DNA from: a virus | Length of the DNA: 64,000 bases | IMG/VR virus record: IMGVR_UViG_3300045988_119023 | Location: 32,471-96,470 of that record | Direction: 5' to 3' (one strand) | Shown: piece by piece, positions 21 through 46,170 of the stretch | Layout of the letters: every line of letters begins with the position of its first letter | Position numbering within the stretch: the stretch's first letter is position 1 | Translations under genes and position numbers: made by a program | Notes under the pieces: generated by a model | Told to the model about the DNA's origin: nothing | Database searches by the model: none | The model's input: the letters and a program-made list of their open reading frames with translations, nothing else

Positions 21-3000
21 GTGAATATCTATCCTAATTACCCATATAATGACCTGTCACAAGATCAATATAATTATACGTCTGGCAAAAGAGACGAGTT
101 TATATCCCATCCTTTCGACAAAGGAGGAAACGTGTGGTATTCATTCTGTTCACCTGATATTTATTTCAACAAGCCAGAACTTCCAAATGAAGTATGTATA
201 GACGGGTTTCAAAGAGGAATGTCTGTGGGCAGTTTCGTACCTGTAGAAGATCATCCAAAATGGACTATCTTAGGTCCTGCCGCATACACGATGGCTGCGT
301 CGCTTGCCGCAGTTGAATCAAGTGCCACAATAGCAGCTATGATAGCAGAAGAGCTTCAGATAAGGGCGCAGTCTGGATACATAGGAGGGTCGGCCGGTCT
401 TACCGGAGGAGGATTCCTGACTAATTTAAGTGTGGCCATGCTGTTTTCTTCAATGGTGTCAACCATCAGTCAGACTCTTGCTAAAGGCCCGATATTGTAT
501 GGTAAGTACCGTTATGATTGGCTTAATACGTTTATAAACAATGGACCAAGACGTAATCATGCATGGTATTATACTTCTGTGGGATTATATAATTCAATGA
601 TAGGCATAACAGATCAGGATAAGTATGAACGAAATTTTGCCCGTGGTTTATCTTCTGTTAAGTACATTAAGTCTGGCGTATATCCGATGATGGATGCCAG
701 TATGTCTTCTAAATGGGGAACCGGTAGAAATGATAATGAGGGACGTTTCTTATTCGTTAATAATATAGATCGTGAATCTTCGTTATTTTTATCATTTGGT
801 GATCCAGGTGAAAAAGGAGATGGTAAATCGAAATATTTATTGGAATATCCGAACTATGTTTACAATTACGACAGTAGCCGCATAGATGATTCGGTTATTG
901 CTGGAAGTGATGTTGTAGCAGGAAGAACATTCGAGCAATCCAAAACAGTATCGTACATCTGTTCTCCGTATATGAGACTTATGCGATATAGGCCGGATCA
1001 ATATGGACAGATAGAAGATATAAAATGGATTTCCATAGGTGGATGTGGCTTTTTCACTAATGAAAAGAAACTGATGTTCGGTGGCGATACGGTAATAACA
1101 AGATTCTCATTAAAAAGAAAATTCCCTGTTTTTTATAATAGCGCTTTTGGTATTGGAGACATGATACCATTCCCATACATGGATTACAGAAATGTAGGGT
1201 ATCCAAGATATTTTGTTAATTATGATACTGGAGAAGACGCTCTTGAGACAATAGATAACGAACGTTTCAATAGCTGGACATCATCTAATAAAGGAAGATA
1301 CGCTTTTTATCCAAACAGGAAGAGCTTATACGAATTAAATGGTGACACATCCGGCAGGTACGTTAATGGAAGATTTTATACATGGTTCTATGGCATTCCT
1401 CAGTTCCTTGTAGAGTCTGAAATAAATTGTAATTTCAGATTAGAGGGCCCTCAGCCTCATGAATTATTCTATCCAAAAGTAGGAGATTTTGTTTGGTGGA
1501 CACAAGAAAAGAACGTATCTATCCATAGGGATAATGATTACAAGATAAGTCCTATCTATTCGTCGAGGATGACACTAACACCAAATGTATTGCCGGCAAC
1601 GTACGAACGACGTTTTTATGACTGTGCTTACCAACGTCCTAATGGTGTTATATGGAGTAGGGCTGATGTATCTGAAAACAGTCAAACAGATCCGTGGCTG
1701 ACGTACAAGCCTATGGACTATCATGAGTTCCCAACCAGCAACGGGAAGCTTATTCACATGAAGCGTATTGAATCCGATCAGATTCTTGTTAGATTCGAGG
1801 ATCAGGTTTCGCTCCATAACGCCATAGACGTAATCAAGGAGCGCACCTCCCCAGGGCAGGCCGAGATGGGCACCGGCGGTCTGTTCGCGTCCCGGCCTCT
1901 GGAGTACAACACGACCGACCTTGGCTATTCTGGAACCCAGAGTACTGAAATAATTAGTTCAGAATTTGGTCACTTCTGGGTGGATACTAAAAGAGCACAG
2001 GTGTTTATGACCGATCCAAATGGACGCAATCTTAAGGAACTTAGTGTAGGTATCAGACATTGGCTTAAGCGTCATCTTCCGTTTAAGATCCTTAGATACG
2101 GAATAACTAATATCTTAACTGGTACGGAGATGACAGAAGAAGATACGGATAATAAATTTATTGGTCTTGGTCTGTCTCTTGGATGGGATAACAGGTATAA
2201 GAGAATACTTATCACGAAAAAAGATTATATACCTGTTAAGAACCCGGCATATTATAAATATGATGGTGGTAGGTTTTTGTACAATGATACAGAGATATCA
2301 TTAAAGGATGAGCGATATTTCAAGGATGTGTCATTCACTATCGGATATTCTTGTTTGAAGCAAGAATGGATTTCTTATTATTCGTTTTGTCCCGATTATT
2401 ATATAGAACAGCAACAATATTTCCAGACAGGAATAAACTTCCCGGCATTAGACGAGGAAGGTGGCTTATGGAGTCATTTGTTGACGAATAAGAGCTTCCA
2501 GACATTCTACGGAACAACATACCCATTTATATTAGAAGTGCCGATAAAAGAGAAATATAATGGCTCTACGTTGGCTTCTGTAGAATACGAACTTGATGCA
2601 AGGAAATACGTCGATGATGTGAATTACACTCTTGACAGGAAAGTAGGTTTGGATACGATAACTATCTATAACGACACAAACAACTCAGGTGAAATTCATC
2701 TTGTCCCAGAAGAAAAGAATAATTTAGCACAACGTATATCGTATCCGAAGATCGTAGGCGACCATACCGAGGTCCTGGATACTGAGGTATATAGAAGACA
2801 TAAGTTAAATGACTTCTTCAACAGGGTTGACGATGACCGATCGGAGACCCCTATTTGGATCAAGGACGATAACGATATAAATAAGTCAGTTAATTCTGAT
2901 GCTCTTAATTTCAGACGGTCATGGCTTGACAGGTTAAGAGGAAGTTGGATGCTGATGAGGATAAAGAAAGTAATTAGCAACCGGAAAATCATATTCCAGT

Positions 3001-3035
3001 GGTTGATTTCTGAAGATAAGATTAGGAATAGATAA
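21..3035 (+). CDS. Large virion-associated protein (1004 aa), function unknown, possibly tail or receptor-binding. The frame is open to the window start, so it is likely 5'-partial or GTG-initiated at 21.
   Basis: Long uninterrupted ORF with no in-frame stop back to nt 3. Sits in a block of co-oriented giant genes and is followed by a hairpin terminator. Confidence 0.5.
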   Translation: MNIYPNYPYNDLSQDQYNYTSGKRDEFISHPFDKGGNVWYSFCSPDIYFNKPELPNEVCIDGFQRGMSVGSFVPVEDHPKWTILGPAAYTMAASLAAVESSATIAAMIAEELQIRAQSGYIGGSAGLTGGGFLTNLSVAMLFSSMVSTISQTLAKGPILYGKYRYDWLNTFINNGPRRNHAWYYTSVGLYNSMIGITDQDKYERNFARGLSSVKYIKSGVYPMMDASMSSKWGTGRNDNEGRFLFVNNIDRESSLFLSFGDPGEKGDGKSKYLLEYPNYVYNYDSSRIDDSVIAGSDVVAGRTFEQSKTVSYICSPYMRLMRYRPDQYGQIEDIKWISIGGCGFFTNEKKLMFGGDTVITRFSLKRKFPVFYNSAFGIGDMIPFPYMDYRNVGYPRYFVNYDTGEDALETIDNERFNSWTSSNKGRYAFYPNRKSLYELNGDTSGRYVNGRFYTWFYGIPQFLVESEINCNFRLEGPQPHELFYPKVGDFVWWTQEKNVSIHRDNDYKISPIYSSRMTLTPNVLPATYERRFYDCAYQRPNGVIWSRADVSENSQTDPWLTYKPMDYHEFPTSNGKLIHMKRIESDQILVRFEDQVSLHNAIDVIKERTSPGQAEMGTGGLFASRPLEYNTTDLGYSGTQSTEIISSEFGHFWVDTKRAQVFMTDPNGRNLKELSVGIRHWLKRHLPFKILRYGITNILTGTEMTEEDTDNKFIGLGLSLGWDNRYKRILITKKDYIPVKNPAYYKYDGGRFLYNDTEISLKDERYFKDVSFTIGYSCLKQEWISYYSFCPDYYIEQQQYFQTGINFPALDEEGGLWSHLLTNKSFQTFYGTTYPFILEVPIKEKYNGSTLASVEYELDARKYVDDVNYTLDRKVGLDTITIYNDTNNSGEIHLVPEEKNNLAQRISYPKIVGDHTEVLDTEVYRRHKLNDFFNRVDDDRSETPIWIKDDNDINKSVNSDALNFRRSWLDRLRGSWMLMRIKKVISNRKIIFQWLISEDKIRNR

Positions 3036-3106
3036 ATTACAATATTTAATAAGTTGAAAATAAGTAGTTTTTATTTTGTGATTTAATAATAGTTGAATAT
3101 ATTTGT

Positions 3107-3141
3107 AGCGCCTATCGATCCATCGCGGACAGATAGGCGCT
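3107..3141 (+). terminator. Rho-independent terminator candidate.
   Basis: 9-bp perfect stem AGCGCCTAT/ATAGGCGCT with a 16-nt loop, followed by TATTTATT. Confidence 0.5.
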
Positions 3142-3171
3142 TATTTATTAACAATAAAACGATGTAAAATT

Positions 3172-3924
3172 ATGAAAAGTAACGTATTATTACAATCAGA
3201 AAGCAGAGAATTGTTAGGTAGAAACATTTCTGTTATGTCAAAAGATGGTTTTGTGTGCATAACAGAGGTTATGGATGTATTGTCACAGAAAAGAGCGGCT
3301 ATGGGGTTGGAGCCTAAAAGACTCGACCATTTAATGTCTACGTCGTCTTTTCAAGAGAAAATGAATGCATTAATTAAAGAATTGAATATCAATGAATTGA
3401 CTTGTACTGTACGATATCGTACACTCAAAGATAATTCATTGAATATAAACAAATTAACTGATTTGAAGAAATACGGAATGGCATACAGGAGAGGAAAAGG
3501 GAAAGATCAAAAATGGTTTGTTAATCCGTATTTTTTCGTTATGATAGCCTTAGAGTTAGATCCTGAAATATATGCTAAGGTTATATTATGGCTTACCGAT
3601 AATTTTATAGAAAATAGAAATATAGCTGGTGAAGCTTACATTAAGATGTGCAAATCTGTTTCCTCTTTAATAAAAAACAAAAGCGAATTATCTGATAAGA
3701 TAAAAATAGTAGCCAAAGCCATAAATTTTATTGTTTTTAATAAACATGAAGATGGGATTAGAAATTTTGCAACGAAGAATGAGTTAAATGAAATAATATC
3801 AATAGAGAATGCAGTTGGAGCTATAATCGATGGAGGGTTTGTTCATTCATTCGAGGAATTAAGAATGTATTTAGGTAAAGAGTGGAAAAAGAGATGGGGT
3901 AATCCAATTATGGCTCTAAAATAA
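3172..3924 (+). CDS. KilA-N domain DNA-binding protein (antirepressor-like). Paralog of the - strand gene at 46831..47568.
   Basis: Contains a KilA-N-like C-terminal motif, KWFVNPYFFVMIALELDPEIYAKVILWL. Compare GTWVHPDLAxxxAxWLSPEF in KilA-N/APSES. Clear similarity to the second copy in this window. Confidence 0.55.
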   Translation: MKSNVLLQSESRELLGRNISVMSKDGFVCITEVMDVLSQKRAAMGLEPKRLDHLMSTSSFQEKMNALIKELNINELTCTVRYRTLKDNSLNINKLTDLKKYGMAYRRGKGKDQKWFVNPYFFVMIALELDPEIYAKVILWLTDNFIENRNIAGEAYIKMCKSVSSLIKNKSELSDKIKIVAKAINFIVFNKHEDGIRNFATKNELNEIISIENAVGAIIDGGFVHSFEELRMYLGKEWKKRWGNPIMALK

Positions 3925-3968
3925 TTTCGCTTCAATTGTAGTTTTCATTGTAACAATTTTAATAGCGT

Positions 3969-4006
3969 AGCCGAGGAAGTACGTGAGTATATCTTCGGCT
4001 TTTTTT
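3969..4006 (+). terminator. Rho-independent terminator candidate.
   Basis: Stem AGCCGAGG/CTTCGGCT followed by TTTTTTGTTT. Confidence 0.5.
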
Positions 4007-4034: not shown

Positions 4035-4448
4035 ATGAAACAGGTATCGTATAAAAATGATATATACCCATACAACATAAGGGTATTGCTTGGAGCAGAT
4101 GAAGAGTATATAGTAAAGACATTTGCCAACTTAGAAGTAGAAGATCAGAGCTGGGATGGATGGACTGATGATTATGGTGGCAGAACTATTTTTGTAGGAA
4201 ACCGAACCAATCACAGGAAAGAAATATGTTTCTTGTTTCATTCGCTGTCTGACATGGATGTAAAAACCATAGGACATGAATGCCTTCACGGTCTTTCTAT
4301 TTATTGTAAGTATCTTAATATGGATTACAGTTTTGAAGCCGGAGGAGATGAGCATGCCGCTTTCCTGATGGGATGGTTAGTTGATAAGGTTTGTGATGCT
4401 TACCATAAGTTTAAGAAGGAGGAGGAAAAAGATGACAAAGAAGAATAA
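4035..4448 (+). CDS. Small protein with an HExxH motif (putative zinc metallopeptidase-like). The track start at 4005 is probably too early.
   Basis: HECLH motif in TIGHECLHGLSIY with a downstream DEH. A TAtcTTTG promoter-like element lies at 4008-4015. The gene sits immediately upstream of the lysin gene and overlaps it. Confidence 0.4.
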   Translation: MKQVSYKNDIYPYNIRVLLGADEEYIVKTFANLEVEDQSWDGWTDDYGGRTIFVGNRTNHRKEICFLFHSLSDMDVKTIGHECLHGLSIYCKYLNMDYSFEAGGDEHAAFLMGWLVDKVCDAYHKFKKEEEKDDKEE

Positions 4449-6687
4449 ATCAGATTGGAAGCCCTCAGAAAATATCCTAAAATATTTGAAATCGTGGGAA
4501 AAGTTCGAGCCTGAATTATATGACGACAAGAAGGGAAATATAACAATCGGGTACGGATTTCATCTTCCTCATCTTCTTAAAAAATACAAGAATGGTATAA
4601 CAGTAGAAGAGGCCGATAAGGAATTTGAAGGTGTAGTTAATACGTTTGTTCCGGAATTTATACGAAGAACTCCTAATTTCAAAAATCTAAACAATAATCA
4701 GCGAGATGCTTTGTTTAGTTTGTTTTACAACACAGGAGGATCAGAGTATTCTAAAAGCCCAATGCTTTTCAAATACCTTAAAGAAGGTGATTATGATAAG
4801 GCAGTGAAAGAAATAAACCACAATGAAAACGAGAAAGGTATGGGCGGTCAGAAGAAGCGCCGTGCCTTCGAGCGCCGGGTGTTCTCTACGCCAACAGACC
4901 AGCCTTGGACGGTAGACGACGACAGTAATTATGTCTTGGTTGAAGACAAGCCTGTAGAGGACGAATCTATAGAAAAAGATACTAATGATTCAAAGTATGA
5001 AGACGCTCGCCATGTGGAAGCTAAATATGGTTATACAGGTTATGTAGGTAGAGGATATGACGGAAATAAGGTCAGGGTATCTGATTCGAATATGAAATCA
5101 GTTGGTATCTCCAATAACGCTGATCCTAATAAGTGGTATGAATCCGTTAATCCAATATTAGACACTGATCCTATTAGTTTAATGGTCGATTTTATTCCTA
5201 CTGTGAAACGAATGTTGGATCCTAACAGGGAGAGATCAGGGGAAGATACAGCCACAGATTTTGAAGAGAAAATGTGGAAGGCTTACACGGATGGAGATAT
5301 AAGTAGATTACCGGCAAGCAAGTATCGTTTTGATGACGATGATGATGATGCTCAGTATGTAGGATTGCCTCAAGAACAAGCTATTTTGATACAATCTTTA
5401 TTAGATAAAGAGTATATGAACAACATGCTTGACAAAGCATATAAGGATGCTGATGAAAAAAGTAAACGAAAAATAAGAGATTACAAGAAGGTCCTTAATA
5501 AACTAAATAAAAATATATTTGAAAATCCAGGAAAATGGATTTTAGTAAATGAAGGTGTAAGTCCGTTTAGAGAAGAAGTATATGGTGACAATTTTGAAAA
5601 AGTAAACGAAGCTTCAGGATTAGGTGCGTTGAAGAATTTCAGCGTAAGATGGGATCCGGATGCTGGTATGTTGGATGTGAAGGATGATTATGATTTTAGC
5701 CGAAAGAAGATAGCAGAAGACATCATACCGGAAAGGGATGTCCCTCTTAGAATAAGGGAACGTATCAAATACGATCCTAAGAAAGGTAGTGTGCTTCGAA
5801 ATAATGACAAGGCTTTACCTAAAAGGTTTGTAAGGAAATACGAAGAAGGTGGCGTAGTTGGCAAGCAGCGTGAAGCATATGAATACTTTACTAATAAGCG
5901 TGGCATGTCCAAGATACAGGCGCTCGCCATCATAGGTAACCTCATGGCTGAATCCGGCCTTAAAGATGACATATACGGAGACAACAGAACATCATACGGC
6001 ATACAGCAATGGCATAATGAGCGCATGGATAAGTTGTTCAAGCACGCCAAAAAGAAAGGTCATTCTACACCAACATTCAAAGACCAACTTGAGTTCTTGG
6101 CTGACGAATACGAAGGGAAAACCGGATATTCTAATTTCTTATACACAAGAAAAGGAAAAGAAGGACCAGGGTATTACAACTACAGCCGGCAGGATTTTAT
6201 GAACGCCGATAACCTTAAGGATGCTGTAGTAGCTTGGAACCAAGGAGCAGGACGTCCTCATAAGAGTGTTATAAGAAATGATGACCGTTATGACTATGCT
6301 ATGGAAGTTGCTAAAAATCTTGGTTTGGAAATTGAAGAAAATTCCGTATCTTTGTATGGTCAAATGGGATTCGGAGATGATGGAGAAATAGCAGCATCGG
6401 TAACACTTCCAGAGGTAGAAGTGGCAGCCGCCCTCCCTTACCCGGAAGCCCAGTCCCAGGAGAGACAGTCCGAGGAAGAGAGATTCCGTACATGGACTGA
6501 AACGTATGGTAAAGACATCGTAAATCATTTACTGACGTTAGACGGGAAAAAGGATGGTGATGACAGTGATTACAGCATGATGTATAGACAGCATGAAAAA
6601 GAAAGCGAAGAGGATAAGAAAATGGCTTTGATTAATGCCGTGCTTCCCAATATTCAGCTTCGCATTAAAGGCGTCACTGATAATTAG
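4432..6687 (+). CDS. Virion-associated peptidoglycan hydrolase with two lytic domains: an N-terminal GH24 T4/lambda-type lysozyme and a central phage tail-lysozyme-like domain.
   Basis: Domain 1: SWEKFEPELYDDKKGNITIGYGFHL matches the E...D...T catalytic pattern of T4 lysozyme. Domain 2: GNLMAESGLKDDIYGDNRTSYGIQQWHNERMDKLFKHAKKKG resembles the phage tail lysozyme family (GNxxxESGxxxxxxGDxGxSxGxxQW). A strong AAGGAGGAGG sits before the ATG at 4432. Confidence 0.75.
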   Translation: MTKKNKSDWKPSENILKYLKSWEKFEPELYDDKKGNITIGYGFHLPHLLKKYKNGITVEEADKEFEGVVNTFVPEFIRRTPNFKNLNNNQRDALFSLFYNTGGSEYSKSPMLFKYLKEGDYDKAVKEINHNENEKGMGGQKKRRAFERRVFSTPTDQPWTVDDDSNYVLVEDKPVEDESIEKDTNDSKYEDARHVEAKYGYTGYVGRGYDGNKVRVSDSNMKSVGISNNADPNKWYESVNPILDTDPISLMVDFIPTVKRMLDPNRERSGEDTATDFEEKMWKAYTDGDISRLPASKYRFDDDDDDAQYVGLPQEQAILIQSLLDKEYMNNMLDKAYKDADEKSKRKIRDYKKVLNKLNKNIFENPGKWILVNEGVSPFREEVYGDNFEKVNEASGLGALKNFSVRWDPDAGMLDVKDDYDFSRKKIAEDIIPERDVPLRIRERIKYDPKKGSVLRNNDKALPKRFVRKYEEGGVVGKQREAYEYFTNKRGMSKIQALAIIGNLMAESGLKDDIYGDNRTSYGIQQWHNERMDKLFKHAKKKGHSTPTFKDQLEFLADEYEGKTGYSNFLYTRKGKEGPGYYNYSRQDFMNADNLKDAVVAWNQGAGRPHKSVIRNDDRYDYAMEVAKNLGLEIEENSVSLYGQMGFGDDGEIAASVTLPEVEVAAALPYPEAQSQERQSEEERFRTWTETYGKDIVNHLLTLDGKKDGDDSDYSMMYRQHEKESEEDKKMALINAVLPNIQLRIKGVTDN

Positions 6688-6721
6688 AACAATTATTTTA
6701 TTTCTCATATTAATAAAGCGA

Positions 6722-6792
6722 AGCCGGATTTGAGACTCGTTATGCGGATACCGAAGGTTGAAGAACGATATCGAAATAATCCGGCTTTTTTG
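6722..6792 (+). terminator. Structured terminator candidate with a long-range stem.
   Basis: AGCCGGATT ... AATCCGGCT, 9 bp perfect with a 47-nt spacer, followed by TTTTTTG. Confidence 0.4.
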
Positions 6793-6947
6793 TGCGATTT
6801 CGTGAGGGATGGAACTATCATCGCCTTGGTTGGACGGAACAGACCTACGTACTTTCACTGTCCTGACAGGCATGGGCGCCCGTCTCGCCTACTCCCTGCC
6901 TAATTCTCCACTGGCTACCTAATATAACTATTAACGTCACTCCATCA

Positions 6948-7119
6948 CCTATCTCCCTTCAGTCGATAGGTTCAGTCGTTTTTAAATATTATAAGTTCTT
7001 TCGCATCGTTCCCTTCGGTCACGATACTCAATCTTTTAACACAATTAGGCGAACAATACAATGACGGAAAAAGTAATTTGTCAATCCGTTCACTCACTTA
7101 ACTCCCTTCGGTCGTTAAG
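6948..7119 (+). repeat. Three related stem-loops with an identical 11-nt loop, TCCCTTC(A/G)GTC, and covarying stems.
   Basis: Hairpins at 6948-6970 (CCTATC/GATAGG), 7005-7025 (ATCGT/ACGAT) and 7097-7119 (CTTAAC/GTTAAG). The flanks are also similar (GTCACTCC / GTTCACTCAC). They lie in a 650-nt non-coding gap. Confidence 0.6.
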
Positions 7120-7402
7120 TTCATTCACTGTAAACAATTATATGAATAAATGGTAAAGTATATAAAATAATATAAATGATATAATGGGTAAGATCATTGA
7201 AAATGGTCTTAATATTAAGGAAAACGGAGACTATTCATAGGCGTAGTTTTAATTCAAGATTTGTTGTCCCACCTCTGAAGGTCAGGCGGTTACGTTCAGA
7301 ACCGTTTTCCCGTCTCTTATCCAAACCGTCATAAAACAAAAAACCTTGTATCCTATTTCTCTCAAACCGGATACAAGGCCGTGCATTTTCTTATTTGAAC
7401 AT

Positions 7403-8464
7403 ATGATGAAAAATCATATCTTTGCACTAAAAAAAACCATTAATATGGACACAAAGTTAAAAGAAATAATAGATCCTCACAAGTTACACGACAAGCTCTT
7501 TAAGAAAGAGCAAGTCTCTCCGATAGAAGTTATCTACAATAGTTTCAGTAATTTAGGGTACAATGTGGTACGCCGCCCAGCTGGTCAATGTTTAGGAAAT
7601 TTGAGATATTTTAACCTGTTTTACGATAAGAATACTCATCATTTTTATCAGAAGGATAAGAAGTTGAGATATTGTAGTAATTTTCTGATATCCGATTATT
7701 GGAAAGATAGGGTGAGGTGTTTTATAGTTTGGAATTTTGGTTTTGGGAGATTCTTCCCGTACAATGACTTCATAGAGGCTATGGTCTATGACTATCTCCG
7801 ATATGGGAGGAAGTCAGTTCCTTATCTTAAGAGTGTGCAAGAAGCTGAAGAAAAGTGTGTAAGGTTCTACATTAGATCTCAAATAGATATGCTTCGTAAG
7901 GAAGGATATGCTGCATACCGGGCTAAGTTCAAGGAAGAATGTCCTCAGTATTTTATCGGAGACGATAGGACGGTGTTCAGATGTCTTGACAGCTCTTTAA
8001 AAAGAGAAGAGAAGATTGCCGCATGCGTAGCTCACAAAAGAGCTTTAAAAGAGGTGGTTATAACTTCTTTTATTAACCATCTCAAGAAACATCCTACCAC
8101 TTTATATTCGTGGTTTTCATCAGAGGTAGATAGCGAAGGAAAGAATAGGCTCTGTCTATCTGAAAAGGCTGTTTCGTATTTGAATAAGAGACTGGTTCGC
8201 AATGGGTTAAAGTCTCTTTCTGCATCATATCTTTTTAGAACGTTTAGAAAAATGGTGAAGATCTTGTTCGGTTCCAATGTCAGGTCGTTTTTGAATAGCT
8301 GTCTGATGTCTGTTTCAACAGAAGAGGTTTTAACCAAATCTATGAAGAAAATAGTTTCCAAGACAGTGCTGTTTTTGTACAAGAGAGCGCTTAAGGACTA
8401 TCGCTGGGCATGCGGTCTTAAGTACGACCCTGATTCGGGTGGTTTGTCTGCCGTACATGATTGA
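7403..8464 (+). CDS. Hypothetical basic, aromatic-rich protein. The TTG start at 7346 in the track is unlikely because it lies inside a 10-bp hairpin.
   Basis: Long ORF. Start proposed at the ATG at 7403 (MMKNHIF), after the hairpin CCTTGTATCC/GGATACAAGG at 7344-7378. Confidence 0.5.
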   Translation: MMKNHIFALKKTINMDTKLKEIIDPHKLHDKLFKKEQVSPIEVIYNSFSNLGYNVVRRPAGQCLGNLRYFNLFYDKNTHHFYQKDKKLRYCSNFLISDYWKDRVRCFIVWNFGFGRFFPYNDFIEAMVYDYLRYGRKSVPYLKSVQEAEEKCVRFYIRSQIDMLRKEGYAAYRAKFKEECPQYFIGDDRTVFRCLDSSLKREEKIAACVAHKRALKEVVITSFINHLKKHPTTLYSWFSSEVDSEGKNRLCLSEKAVSYLNKRLVRNGLKSLSASYLFRTFRKMVKILFGSNVRSFLNSCLMSVSTEEVLTKSMKKIVSKTVLFLYKRALKDYRWACGLKYDPDSGGLSAVHD

Positions 8465-30849: not shown

Positions 30850-31180
30850 GTCGTAAGATAAAAAGAATCGATTGGGGTAAAAAGTATATCTGTATATCCG
30901 AAATAACATTAAAACAATATAATTTCATTATAAGGTTTTGATGTACCATAAATGGTCCGGATATTAGCCTAAGCCTTGAAACGAAGGCTACGTTATTTGA
31001 GAATAGATAGTTATCTACGGATGTTTACCCAAGTTCGTAGCTCTAAGGTAAGTGATTAAACAGTTCTGGTATTCAGGAACAGTGTTGCTTACGAAAACCT
31101 CTTATAACATTGGCGATGGGTACTAACAGGATGAAATATTCCTGACTTATGTTGAATAAACATTAAAAACGTTTGTAGAT
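30850..31180 (+). ncRNA. Candidate omega-RNA (guide RNA of the IscB OMEGA system) in the 356-nt non-coding gap upstream of iscB.
   Basis: Placement and size match known IscB loci, where the omega-RNA is encoded immediately 5' of iscB. The local hairpin AGCCTT/AAGGCT is one example of structure here. No fold was computed. Confidence 0.4.
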
Positions 31181-32401
31181 ATGGTGTACGTACAAGACAT
31201 AAATGGTAAACCTCTGATGCCAACAACGAGGCATGGCAAGGTTAGGAGACTGCTTAAAGAAAACAAGGCAGTCGTTGTAAACCTATGTCCGTTTACCATC
31301 AAATTAACGTACGTTACATCTGATTACAAACAAGAAATTGTGTTAGGCGTTGATGCTGGTACTAAACATGTTGGTTTATCAGCAACAACGAAAAGCAAAG
31401 AACTTTACAGTAGTGAAGTGATCCTTAGAAATGATATCGTAGATCTTTTGTCTACCAGAAGGGAGCTACGAAGAACAAGACGGAATAGATTGAGGTATAG
31501 AAAATCTCGTTTTGATAATAGAATAAAAAGTAGGCGTCCGGGATGGGTAGCACCTTCGGTGAAGTACAAAATAGACGCTCATATTCGTGTTATTGACAAT
31601 GTATGTTCCATATTACCAATATTTCGTATTGTTATTGAAGTAGCTCAATTTGATACTCAAAAGATTAAGAATCCTGAAATATTAGGTAAAGAATACCAGG
31701 AAGGTGATCAACTTGAGTTTTGGAACACAAGAGAGTATGTTTTAGCAAGGGATGGGCATAAATGTCAGTATTGTAAAGGAAAGTCAAAAGATAAGATCCT
31801 TAATGTCCATCATCTTGAATCCCGAAAAACCGGAGGCGATTCCCCTTCTAATCTTATTACCTTATGTAAAACCTGTCATAAAGAATACCATAAAGGTAAT
31901 ATAGATTTAAAGATCAAACGGGGATCGTCGCTTCGCGACGCGGCCGTAATGGGGATCATGAAATGGAAGTTGTATGAAGAACTGAGATCCAGATACGACA
32001 GAGTTTCTATGACGTTTGGTTACATTACGAAACATAATCGGATTAAATATGGGATTGAAAAATCCCATACATCCGACGCGTTTGTCATTTCTAAGAATAT
32101 TAATGCGAAACGAATCGAACGTCAATATTTAAAACGTTTAATTCGTAGACATAATAGACAAATACATAAAATGAAAATTTTAAAAGGGGGGAAGAAGAAA
32201 AACAATCAAGCTCCTTTTGAGGTTTTCGGTTTTAGGTTGTTTGATAAAGTGTTGTATAACAATAAAATATTCTTTGTTTATGGAAGGAGAAAATCAGGGA
32301 GTTTCAATATCAGGGATTTCAACGGAGAAAATTCAAAAGATGTTTCACGCAAAAAGTTTAAACTCATTAGAGGGAAGAGGCATCCGATTATATTAAAGTA
32401 A
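31181..32401 (+). CDS. iscB: IscB, an IS200/IS605-family OMEGA RNA-guided nuclease. Domain order is PLMP, RuvC-I, Arg-rich bridge helix, RuvC-II, HNH, RuvC-III.
   Basis: PLMP motif in NGKPLMPTTRHGKVRRLL. RuvC-I: IVLGVDAGTKHVGLS. Bridge helix: RRELRRTRRNRLRYRKSRFDNR. RuvC-II: RIVIEVAQFD. HNH: CQYCKG...NVHHLESRKTGGDSPSNLITLCKTCHKEYH. RuvC-III: KSHTSDAFVIS. Length 406 aa. Confidence 0.85.
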   Translation: MVYVQDINGKPLMPTTRHGKVRRLLKENKAVVVNLCPFTIKLTYVTSDYKQEIVLGVDAGTKHVGLSATTKSKELYSSEVILRNDIVDLLSTRRELRRTRRNRLRYRKSRFDNRIKSRRPGWVAPSVKYKIDAHIRVIDNVCSILPIFRIVIEVAQFDTQKIKNPEILGKEYQEGDQLEFWNTREYVLARDGHKCQYCKGKSKDKILNVHHLESRKTGGDSPSNLITLCKTCHKEYHKGNIDLKIKRGSSLRDAAVMGIMKWKLYEELRSRYDRVSMTFGYITKHNRIKYGIEKSHTSDAFVISKNINAKRIERQYLKRLIRRHNRQIHKMKILKGGKKKNNQAPFEVFGFRLFDKVLYNNKIFFVYGRRKSGSFNIRDFNGENSKDVSRKKFKLIRGKRHPIILK

Positions 32402-41632: not shown

Positions 41633-41647
41633 GTATATATAACTGCC

Positions 41648-41812
41648 TTAATCATTTGGAATAACTCCCACTACTTCTTCTGTTGCAGCTTTTTGTTTAA
41701 CAAAATCTTCTGCCTCATCCCAAGAAGTAGCCCATATTTCACCGGCGTATTTTCGCCCGTTGATTTCAAATTCTGTCAAAAATTTCTTTTGTTTTTCTTC
41801 TTTTGTTTTCAT
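41648..41812 (-). CDS. Small hypothetical ORF (about 54 aa), not in the supplied track.
   Basis: Reverse-strand ATG..TAA ORF reading MKTKEEKQKKFLTEFEINGRKYAGEIWATSWDEAEDFVKQ... Confidence 0.3.
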   Translation of the reverse strand: MKTKEEKQKKFLTEFEINGRKYAGEIWATSWDEAEDFVKQKAATEEVVGVIPND

Positions 41813-45607: not shown

Positions 45608-46170
45608 TTCTTTTCCTCCTTGTTTAAAGGCATTAACCCTTTTCCGTGTTTGTCATACCACAGCATAGTTATAACATTCCATGCAGCCGCAGCTAAATGG
45701 TGCACGTTCGTCTCTTTATCCATTCTCTCTCCTTTCAGGTATGCCATTATATGTCTGGCAGCCGCAGCACGGTACCGTTCAAAGCCATTGTCAAGATTCT
45801 GCCAATTATTAGGCCCATATTTCTTAGCTCCGGCATGATAGACTTTTACAATGTCCTCAATCTCTTCCATCGGAAGCAAATCCCATCGTAGTTTGTCGTC
45901 AATGATGTCATTTTTCACTGATTTTATTGAAGTACTTTTTTCTGGATCTCCTACAAGAACAAGTTCCATAATATCTGTTTCTATAATAATTGTGTTTCCA
46001 TTGTAACAAACTTCAGCAAACTTGTCATTTTCTTTTATATTTGTTACTGCAACTACTATAGATCCTTTGTACATTATAGTACTTTTATCTATTTTATCAT
46101 CTTTCAATGTACGAAAAATAGATCCTTTTGGATAAAGGATGTTTTTAGTATTATTGTCCATCTTTTCCAT
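45604..46170 (-). CDS. dATP/dGTP pyrophosphohydrolase-like protein (DUF550 family).
   Basis: LRWDLLPMEEIEDIVKVYHAGAKKYGPNNWQNLDNGFERYRAAAARHIMAYLKGERMDKETNVHHLAAAAWNVITML matches the DUF550 pattern R.DL.P...GA.KYG..NW..G......A.RH....GE..D.E....HLAHAA. Confidence 0.6.
   Translation of the reverse strand: MEKMDNNTKNILYPKGSIFRTLKDDKIDKSTIMYKGSIVVAVTNIKENDKFAEVCYNGNTIIIETDIMELVLVGDPEKSTSIKSVKNDIIDDKLRWDLLPMEEIEDIVKVYHAGAKKYGPNNWQNLDNGFERYRAAAARHIMAYLKGERMDKETNVHHLAAAAWNVITMLWYDKHGKGLMPLNKEEKK

Follow-up and report, generated by a model that had tools for sequence, protein, structure and literature searches.

The window analysed here, a stretch of 64,000 nucleotides, is 94% identical to csAssE-Sib (OR575929.1), a 151-kb crAss-like phage of the epsilon group from the human gut. 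No relative of the window phage other than csAssE-Sib was found in INPHARED, and the phage species is represented by more than 200 contigs in IMG/VR. In the human gut, epsilon crAss-like phages count among the most abundant viruses, and to our knowledge almost nothing has been established about their non-coding DNA. In the window, a gap of 757 nt (6688-7444) separates the gene of a 768-aa protein, which is annotated as a tail lysozyme and carries two lysozyme domains, from a 339-aa open reading frame (ORF), after which genes for large virion proteins follow. The features of this locus are listed in Table 1.

The gap is non-coding, in agreement with the sequence-only reading of this DNA, since stop codons of more than one kind occur in each of its six frames; single-stop recoding therefore rescues no ORF, and recoded coding potential was ruled out for the same reason. 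A minus-strand frame of 41 codons (6972-7097) overlaps a stretch with indels between relatives. Among about 80 contigs of the same species, conservation of the gap is at least as high as that of the flanking coding DNA, and the non-coding region shows a local bias of G over C on the minus strand, opposite to that of the flanking genes. Searches of Rfam yielded no match in the hairpin region at gathering thresholds, nothing meaningful over 6600-7500 with E values up to 10, and nothing meaningful at three related loci with E values up to 1, and no tRNA was detected in the window by ARAGORN. The hairpin region is not mentioned in the paper on the epsilon crAss genome, and no description of the 41-nt element considered below was found in the literature.

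Table 1. Features in and around the non-coding gap, in window coordinates; R1 is the covariance model of the 41-nt element.
Feature	Position	Strand	Description
Tail lysozyme gene (annotated)	4381-6687		768-aa protein, two lysozyme domains; upstream of the gap
Predicted intrinsic terminator of the lysozyme-domain gene	6723-6791	+	Long hairpin GCCGGATT..AATCCGGC, then T6; sequence reading and folds
Block B	6857-6919	-	G-rich on minus, pyrimidine-rich on plus (..CCTCGCCTAC..CCTGCC..TTCTCCACTGGCTACC); RNAalifold -9.1 minus vs -2.8 plus
Hairpin 1	6939-6979	-	Apex CU-GAA-GG (U·G); R1 61.5 bits; fold -10.9 kcal/mol minus vs -7.3 plus
Hairpin 2	6995-7035	-	7-bp stem with U·G wobble (plus strand C·A); R1 60.1 bits; fold -11.8 kcal/mol minus vs -5.0 plus
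Hairpin 3	7088-7128	-	GUGAAUGA-ACUUAAC-GA-CC-GAA-GG-GA-GUUAAGU-GAGUGAAC; R1 64.8 bits, E 1e-14; RNA fold -9.8 kcal/mol minus vs -6.8 plus
AT-rich stretch	7129-7200		Short direct repeats ATGAATAA/GAATGA-like; family alignment
Block D	7247-7290		TTTTAATTCAAGAT..TTG..CCACC and palindromic hairpin CTGA-nnn-TCAG (7275-7285)
Hairpin E (predicted minus-strand terminator)	7338-7378	-	10-bp stem and inner A-U helix, then U6GUUUU; RNAalifold -22.3 minus vs -5.8 plus
ORF promoter, Bacteroidetes type	7394-7424	+	TTTG 7394-7397, TATCTTTG 7417-7424
339-aa ORF	7445-8464	+	Downstream of the gap
Candidate antisense promoter	7452-7459	-	TAACTTTG box at the ORF start

The motif TCCCTTCRGTC matches the window exactly three times, at 6954, 7010 and 7103, always on the plus strand and between complementary arms, and the three stem-loops described earlier at 6948-6970 (hairpin 1), 7005-7025 (hairpin 2) and 7097-7119 (hairpin 3) are thus confirmed. 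The arms comprise seven positions each (ACCTATC/GATAGGT, GCATCGT/ACGATAC with one C·A, and ACTTAAC/GTTAAGT), so that the complementarity noted earlier stands while the stem length of five to six positions does not. On the minus strand each copy reads as a hairpin of 41 nt, composed in order of 2 bp, a tandem G·A, 2 bp, a second tandem G·A, the 7-bp stem, a third tandem G·A, a CC/GG step and a GNA triloop. The apex is the "mini-hairpin" heptamer CCGAAGG, and in the inner core (GA-CC-GNA-GG-GA in the minus-strand reading) only the middle base of the central triplet varies. The identical 11-nt loop of the sequence-only reading thus dissolves into a tandem G·A, two base pairs and a triloop, and would be an artefact of reading the wrong strand. 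The flanks, correctly recognized there as related, turn out to be eight further positions of the same helix: on the minus strand, CACTCA before each core and TTCANTC after it form two 2-bp steps, each followed by a G·A/A·G step, which gives the element its length of 41 nt. Spacings of 56 and 93 nt separate the repeats, whose stems are A+T-rich and differ between copies. A T-run follows on neither strand, and a scan of 6600-7600 returned no terminator-like site.

Short folds of each copy are better than those of shuffled sequences (z -1.6 to -4.5), and the minus-strand folds are 3-7 kcal/mol more stable than the plus-strand ones. Covariation was assessed for a 25-nt core in 18 distinct copies or variants from paralogues and relatives, and for the whole 41-nt element in 12 distinct copies. 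Seven of the nine core pairs change on both sides; 98.8% of the cells are paired on the minus strand, 11 of them as G·U wobbles, against 92.6% on the plus strand, with a single wobble cell and 12 mismatches. When the 3' partners were slid as a control, 33-42% of the cells remained paired, and the observed score was reached by none of 500 shuffles. In the 41-nt element, all six GA dinucleotides are invariant and 11 of the 13 Watson-Crick pairs are altered on both sides, 92% of the cells being paired vs 36-48% with slid partners, again with no match to the score in 500 shuffles. The compensatory covariation proposed earlier is thereby borne out, and the alignments point to real hairpins whose structure is under selection.

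The pattern of mismatches also bears on the strand. Arm mismatches, whether fixed or polymorphic, are C·A on the plus strand, corresponding to G·U (or G·T) wobbles on the minus strand, and the invariant GA dinucleotides appear as TC/TC mismatches when read on the plus strand; in hairpin 2 the wobble is replaced by U-A in a population variant. The structure accordingly appears to read better on the minus strand, although the strand argument counts about six independent wobble events against one, a modest base. Covariation extends into the former loop, in which positions 3:9 and 4:8 covary: a paralogue carrying TCGCTTCGCTC shows a swap from C3:G9 to G3:C9, hairpin 1 passes at 4:8 through C4:G8, C4:A8 and T4:A8 on the plus strand (C:G, U·G and U:A as apical pair on the minus strand), and a variant with a two-base deletion retains a one-pair version. 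An orthologue with 41% identity (L253) possesses two GA-rich minus-strand hairpins capped by GUGA, a GNRA loop. In the paralogue, hairpins 1 and 3 form only if minus-strand G·A pairs and a bulge are allowed, and its whole region folds no better than shuffled sequence (z -0.8). Twelve of the 41 positions are non-Watson-Crick, with TC/TC as their complements, and a duplex palindrome would therefore be poor, which argues for a single-stranded functional form rather than a cruciform. The options offered by the sequence-only reading, namely RNA, or a single-stranded DNA or protein-recognized hairpin, still form the correct set.

A covariance model of the 41-mer recovers the three window copies at E values of about 1e-13 to 1e-14 and finds no further copy, either in the window or elsewhere in the 151-kb csAssE-Sib genome. 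Across 71 related loci, R1 identified 171 copies, every one of them upstream of the ORF and in minus-strand orientation with respect to it, with copy number varying by duplication or deletion of single modules. A search of IMG/VR with TCCCTTCRGTC-N7-TCANTC found only three stemless chance matches outside this phage species. Hairpins confined to one locus are not expected of a general promoter, terminator or packaging signal, and two earlier suggestions lose support: phage-RNA-polymerase promoters or terminators, given a sole locus in 151 kb and the lack of T-runs, and a packaging or terminase (pac/cos) site, given that the terminase genes of csAssE-Sib (20.1-23.2 kb) lie about 55 kb from the hairpins (77.9-78.1 kb). 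Nor do the hairpins occur in the two minus-strand arms (0-17 kb and 111-151 kb), where the replication genes are located.

The downstream 339-aa ORF belongs to an unannotated family, represented by 16 clusters in a word-indexed search and by 23 representatives among 1.84 billion proteins. The protein is helical with winged-helix-like parts, and neither a primase fold nor conserved acidic residues were seen in it. Members of the family are always preceded by a long non-coding region (0.54-1.1 kb), an arrangement kept down to about 20% identity; relatives of P0017 are absent from IMG/VR. In the 41% orthologue the gene occupies the same place after the lysozyme gene, behind a 563-nt gap. A paralogue with 62% identity, preceded by a homologous non-coding region of about 750 nt, is found in many contigs of this species at a distance of about 37 kb, flanked by a DUF6808 gene and the gene of a 292-aa structural protein; both copies occur together in several contigs, and csAssE-Sib has only an 84-nt gap (41636-41720) at this site. 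Since the second copy is present or absent at one site, the non-coding region and the gene behave as a unit that has been duplicated or inserted, and the paralogous cassette is an insertion polymorphism within one phage species. The conserved non-coding region of about 0.65 kb is thus inherited, duplicated and moved with the gene. The location between the lysin gene and a structural operon, earlier taken as a clue to function, loses its value because the second cassette has another neighbourhood; judged from these arrangements, the hairpins appear tied to the 339-aa gene and not to that boundary. Examples of the second copy include L203 (5180-7086) and L208-L246 in IMG/VR, from the same species, and internal duplications or deletions of hairpin modules or block-B segments are seen in L218, L223, L231, L237, L239 and L243.

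Several other elements of the non-coding region are conserved. Block B is found in the window type, in L201, in the P0007-type paralogue and in the 41% orthologue, and block D is kept even in a relative with 20% identity (L254). Within the hairpin of the predicted lysozyme-gene terminator (6723-6785), the plus strand contains CCGAAGG at 6751-6757 (8-mer ACCGAAGG), which is flanked by GATA and TTGA (6746-6760); the counterpart in L201 is GATT-CCGAAGG-ATGA, with an A:T to T:A swap beside the apex relative to the window. This heptamer could be related to the hairpin apex, on the opposite strand; at 6751-6757 the covariance model finds a match to the 7-nt apex only, which is not significant.

Signals for transcription of the minus strand are concentrated at the ORF end of the gap. 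Hairpin E, in which the stems covary and the loop is conserved across the family, shows C·A mismatches on the plus strand in L244, L254 and L249, and is predicted to act as an intrinsic terminator of minus-strand transcripts. On the plus strand, a TAnnTTTG box stands directly 5' of the ORF in 7/7 family members. In four of seven lineages the minus strand has an exact TAnnTTTG box no more than about 20 nt from the start codon, and terminator E recurs in all of them. Together, the box at 7459-7452 and hairpin E with its U-run suggest a candidate antisense RNA of about 110 nt (7335-7459, minus strand), which overlaps the promoter and the start of the 339-aa ORF. This good minus-strand promoter candidate is cut off from the three hairpins by terminator E, and directly 5' of the hairpins on the minus strand no convincing host-type promoter was found: a promoter-like site at 7166-7137 is weak and not above chance, and a near-consensus TATAATTG at 7142-7135 is likewise not above chance. 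A distant homologue of the gene (P0030, in L249) is preceded by a non-coding region of 1.1 kb (2906-4000) that is G-rich on the plus strand, with GAGCGAA and GTAGG-type repeats, and shares only hairpin E and the promoter layout; homology of this region to that of the window was rejected, as no alignment scored above shuffles.

The cumulative GC skew of csAssE-Sib turns only twice, at a minimum near 17 kb and a maximum near 110 kb, and does not change in passing 78 kb; the two turns coincide exactly with both strand-switch points of the gene map. The skew extremes place the likely origin and terminus far from the hairpins, and the idea of a replication origin inferred from GC skew was rejected.

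The explanation that we favour, tentatively and at somewhat less than an even chance, is that the hairpins are protein-binding modules of a minus-strand RNA, most economically for the cassette's own product. The three hairpins would be repeats of one 41-nt module, with sheared tandem G·A pairs, that folds in a single strand of minus-strand sequence. They would be transcribed from the minus strand as part of an RNA that is antisense to the late genes on either side. The modules would serve as repeated binding platforms for a protein, of which the 339-aa product is the most economical candidate, and the invariant G·A steps would provide the recognition surface while the covarying Watson-Crick steps would be scaffolding only. 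We infer RNA as the single-stranded form from several features: the wobbles, the bulge and G·A steps in the paralogue, the GNRA cap in the 41% orthologue, the minus-strand transcription signals nearby, the G over C bias of the minus strand, and the position of this strand as leading-strand template for a fork from the 17-kb skew minimum. The apex counts against RNA, because C-G-closed GNA triloops are a hallmark of DNA mini-hairpins and not of RNA (PMC13037366).

Other explanations differ in the strand or in the nucleic acid that they assume. Plus-strand RNA hairpins that terminate or attenuate transcription between operons, or signal packaging there, would accord with the CTTCGG core of the UUCG type perceived in the sequence-only reading, and plus-strand transcripts certainly cross the region, with loops (UUCG, UACG, UCCG) that belong to the UNCG family. 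Such a core needs the closing pair C4:G9, however, and this pair is broken in the paralogue, in which C4 faces C9; hairpin 1 has UUCA and the 41% orthologue UCAC at this place, and the pairs that covary are 3:9 and 4:8, below a minus-strand GNA or GNRA cap. With weaker folds and C·A mismatches on that strand, no T-runs, and a sole genomic locus distant from the terminase gene, the plus-strand explanation is very improbable. It is also improbable, though less so, that the sites are operators or iterons at which a protein reads the 11-bp core in duplex DNA, the inverted repeats being incidental or aids to bending. The threefold core upstream of a gene for a winged-helix-like protein would fit such a role, as would the other short repeats and the block D palindrome nearby, but the compensatory changes in 11 of 13 pairs, the bias of mismatches towards G·U only, and the symmetric conservation of GA steps on both arms would be left unexplained.

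Single-stranded DNA is a more serious candidate, possible though unlikely in our judgement. The hairpins would be initiation signals of a replicon-like cassette, in which melting of the neighbouring AT-rich stretch lets the minus strand fold into the hairpins, at which a primase or primosome enters; jointly with this, the 339-aa protein would be the initiator and the short antisense RNA a copy-control RNA. GNA or GNNA loops closed by C-G form extraordinarily stable DNA mini-hairpins at G4, ssiA and N4 sites, and the apex CCGAAGG is identical to the mini-hairpin heptamer of RSF1010 ssiA (PMC13037366). The minus-strand apices (CCGAAGG, CCGTAGG, CCGGAGG, GCGAAGC and C-GTGA-G) all conform to C-GNA-G or C-GNNA-G, their loops GAA, GTA, GGA and GTGA suiting this family. 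RSF1010 ssiA/ssiB and the complementary-strand origin of phage G4 are likewise hairpins of about 40 nt with a C-GNA-G apex, three of them in a non-coding gap in G4 as here, and as in those systems an AT-rich segment, here with short direct repeats, and a plasmid- or phage-specific protein gene are adjacent. An antisense promoter and terminator at the 5' end of the gene recall plasmid rep control in a basic replicon, and the plus-strand CCGAAGG at 6751 would also fit. Unlike in the ssi and G4 systems, however, all copies here are on one strand and carry three tandem G·A steps per helix, the adjacent gene is not primase-like in fold or acidic residues and no cognate primase was found, and GC skew, steady across 78 kb, gives no sign of an origin. 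In this 151-kb double-stranded DNA phage, a fork from 17 kb would make the minus strand the leading-strand template, which is rarely single-stranded; the replication module of the phage is located elsewhere, and a primase/helicase gene of csAssE-Sib lies at 126.7 kb. Hairpins of DNA would also be less likely to contain bulges or fixed G·T wobbles. Supercoil-extruded template hairpins could also act as promoters in the manner of phage N4, the virion crAss RNA polymerase starting just to the right, towards the 339-aa gene. The idea is attractive because this polymerase needs single-stranded DNA, transcribing only single-stranded or denatured templates, and has no known promoter, its early promoters showing no known motif. 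The N4 early promoters P1-P3 are three template-strand hairpins with a GGA or GAA triloop mini-hairpin (GCGGAGC; PMC13037366) and serve a polymerase that needs single-stranded DNA, and a conserved TCANTC stands at a fixed distance 3' of each hairpin here. This hexamer is, however, accounted for by the helix, in which the upstream CACTCA is its pairing partner. N4 hairpins have simple 5-7-bp stems and lie 5' of early genes at the genome end, whereas the element here is GA-rich and 41 nt long; it does possess a GNA triloop, which is seated on two base pairs over an internal loop of G·A pairs. The crAss polymerase is unrelated in type to that of N4. Only three copies are present in 151 kb, at one internal locus of the late plus-strand arm, none lying in the arms expected to include early genes; the many non-Watson-Crick positions would make cruciform extrusion costly, and the downstream gene already has a host-type promoter in 7/7 lineages. 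There is accordingly little chance that the hairpins are N4-style promoters.

The favoured minus-strand RNA modules resemble several known RNA elements in part. Lambdoid boxB/nut sites, MS2 operators and type III ToxI RNAs likewise combine a conserved apex with covarying stems in several copies, and the ligand here would, as there, be a small phage protein encoded nearby. Neither a boxA nor an N-like protein is present here, however, and the helices with their tandem G·A steps are built differently from boxB; the hairpins lie on the strand opposite to the partner gene and are not tandem direct repeats. The spacing of 56 and 93 nt, the differing stems and the strand opposite to the gene likewise separate the locus from type III toxin-antitoxin (ToxIN-like) systems. 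Kink-turns and other RNAs with tandem sheared G·A pairs share the invariant 5'-GA/3'-AG steps between covarying pairs, and the internal loops here are symmetric 2x2 loops without the 3-nt bulge of a kink-turn and without a match in Rfam. CsrA-type GGA loops were ruled out, as GGA is lost in the paralogue with GCGAAGC, and CRISPR-repeat mimics were ruled out because the stems differ between copies.

Taken as a whole, the locus may represent an undescribed, self-contained module of epsilon-type crAss-like phages, in which a minus-strand G·A-hairpin RNA, a dedicated binding protein and an antisense regulator would together duplicate and insert between genes as a new phage ribonucleoprotein cassette; this fuller interpretation is possible but doubtful. 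A repeated, covarying hairpin tied to a partner gene is of a familiar kind, and the G·A architecture, the strand and the cassette behaviour are new. The analysis defines a bounded structural motif with strong covariation, a working strand and an exclusive partnership with an orphan protein, so that strand-specific RNA mapping, or binding assays with the 41-nt element, could address function directly. If the RNA interpretation is true, the locus provides an RNA-protein module that is new for phages and is at the same time mobile as a cassette; if the hairpins act as single-stranded DNA, they would be the first candidate initiation signals, for priming or transcription, in the Crassvirales.

Some further observations were made in the window and in csAssE-Sib. 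In csAssE-Sib, 72756-74725 (L001 3776-5745) contains tRNA-Tyr, tRNA-Lys and a Ro60-related gene between the muzzle-protein and lysozyme genes, and the corresponding position of the window (3172-3924) is occupied by a 250-aa amidase-like ORF instead. A role of the hairpins as a Y RNA for the Ro60-like gene, in view of a possible resemblance to the 5' end of human Y1 RNA, was rejected, as the window has the hairpins and lacks that gene at the corresponding position. Elsewhere in the window, a full-length HEARO RNA (RF02033, 103 bits) lies at 30894-31127 on the plus strand, directly 5' of a 406-aa ORF (31181-32401), an arrangement typical of IscB-type, HNH-associated omega-RNA elements. In csAssE-Sib, a perfect hairpin, ATTGATG-GCGCAGC-CATCA, with a GCA mini-hairpin apex occurs at 45907-45927 (L247), just 3' of the annotated DGR variable repeat and IMH.
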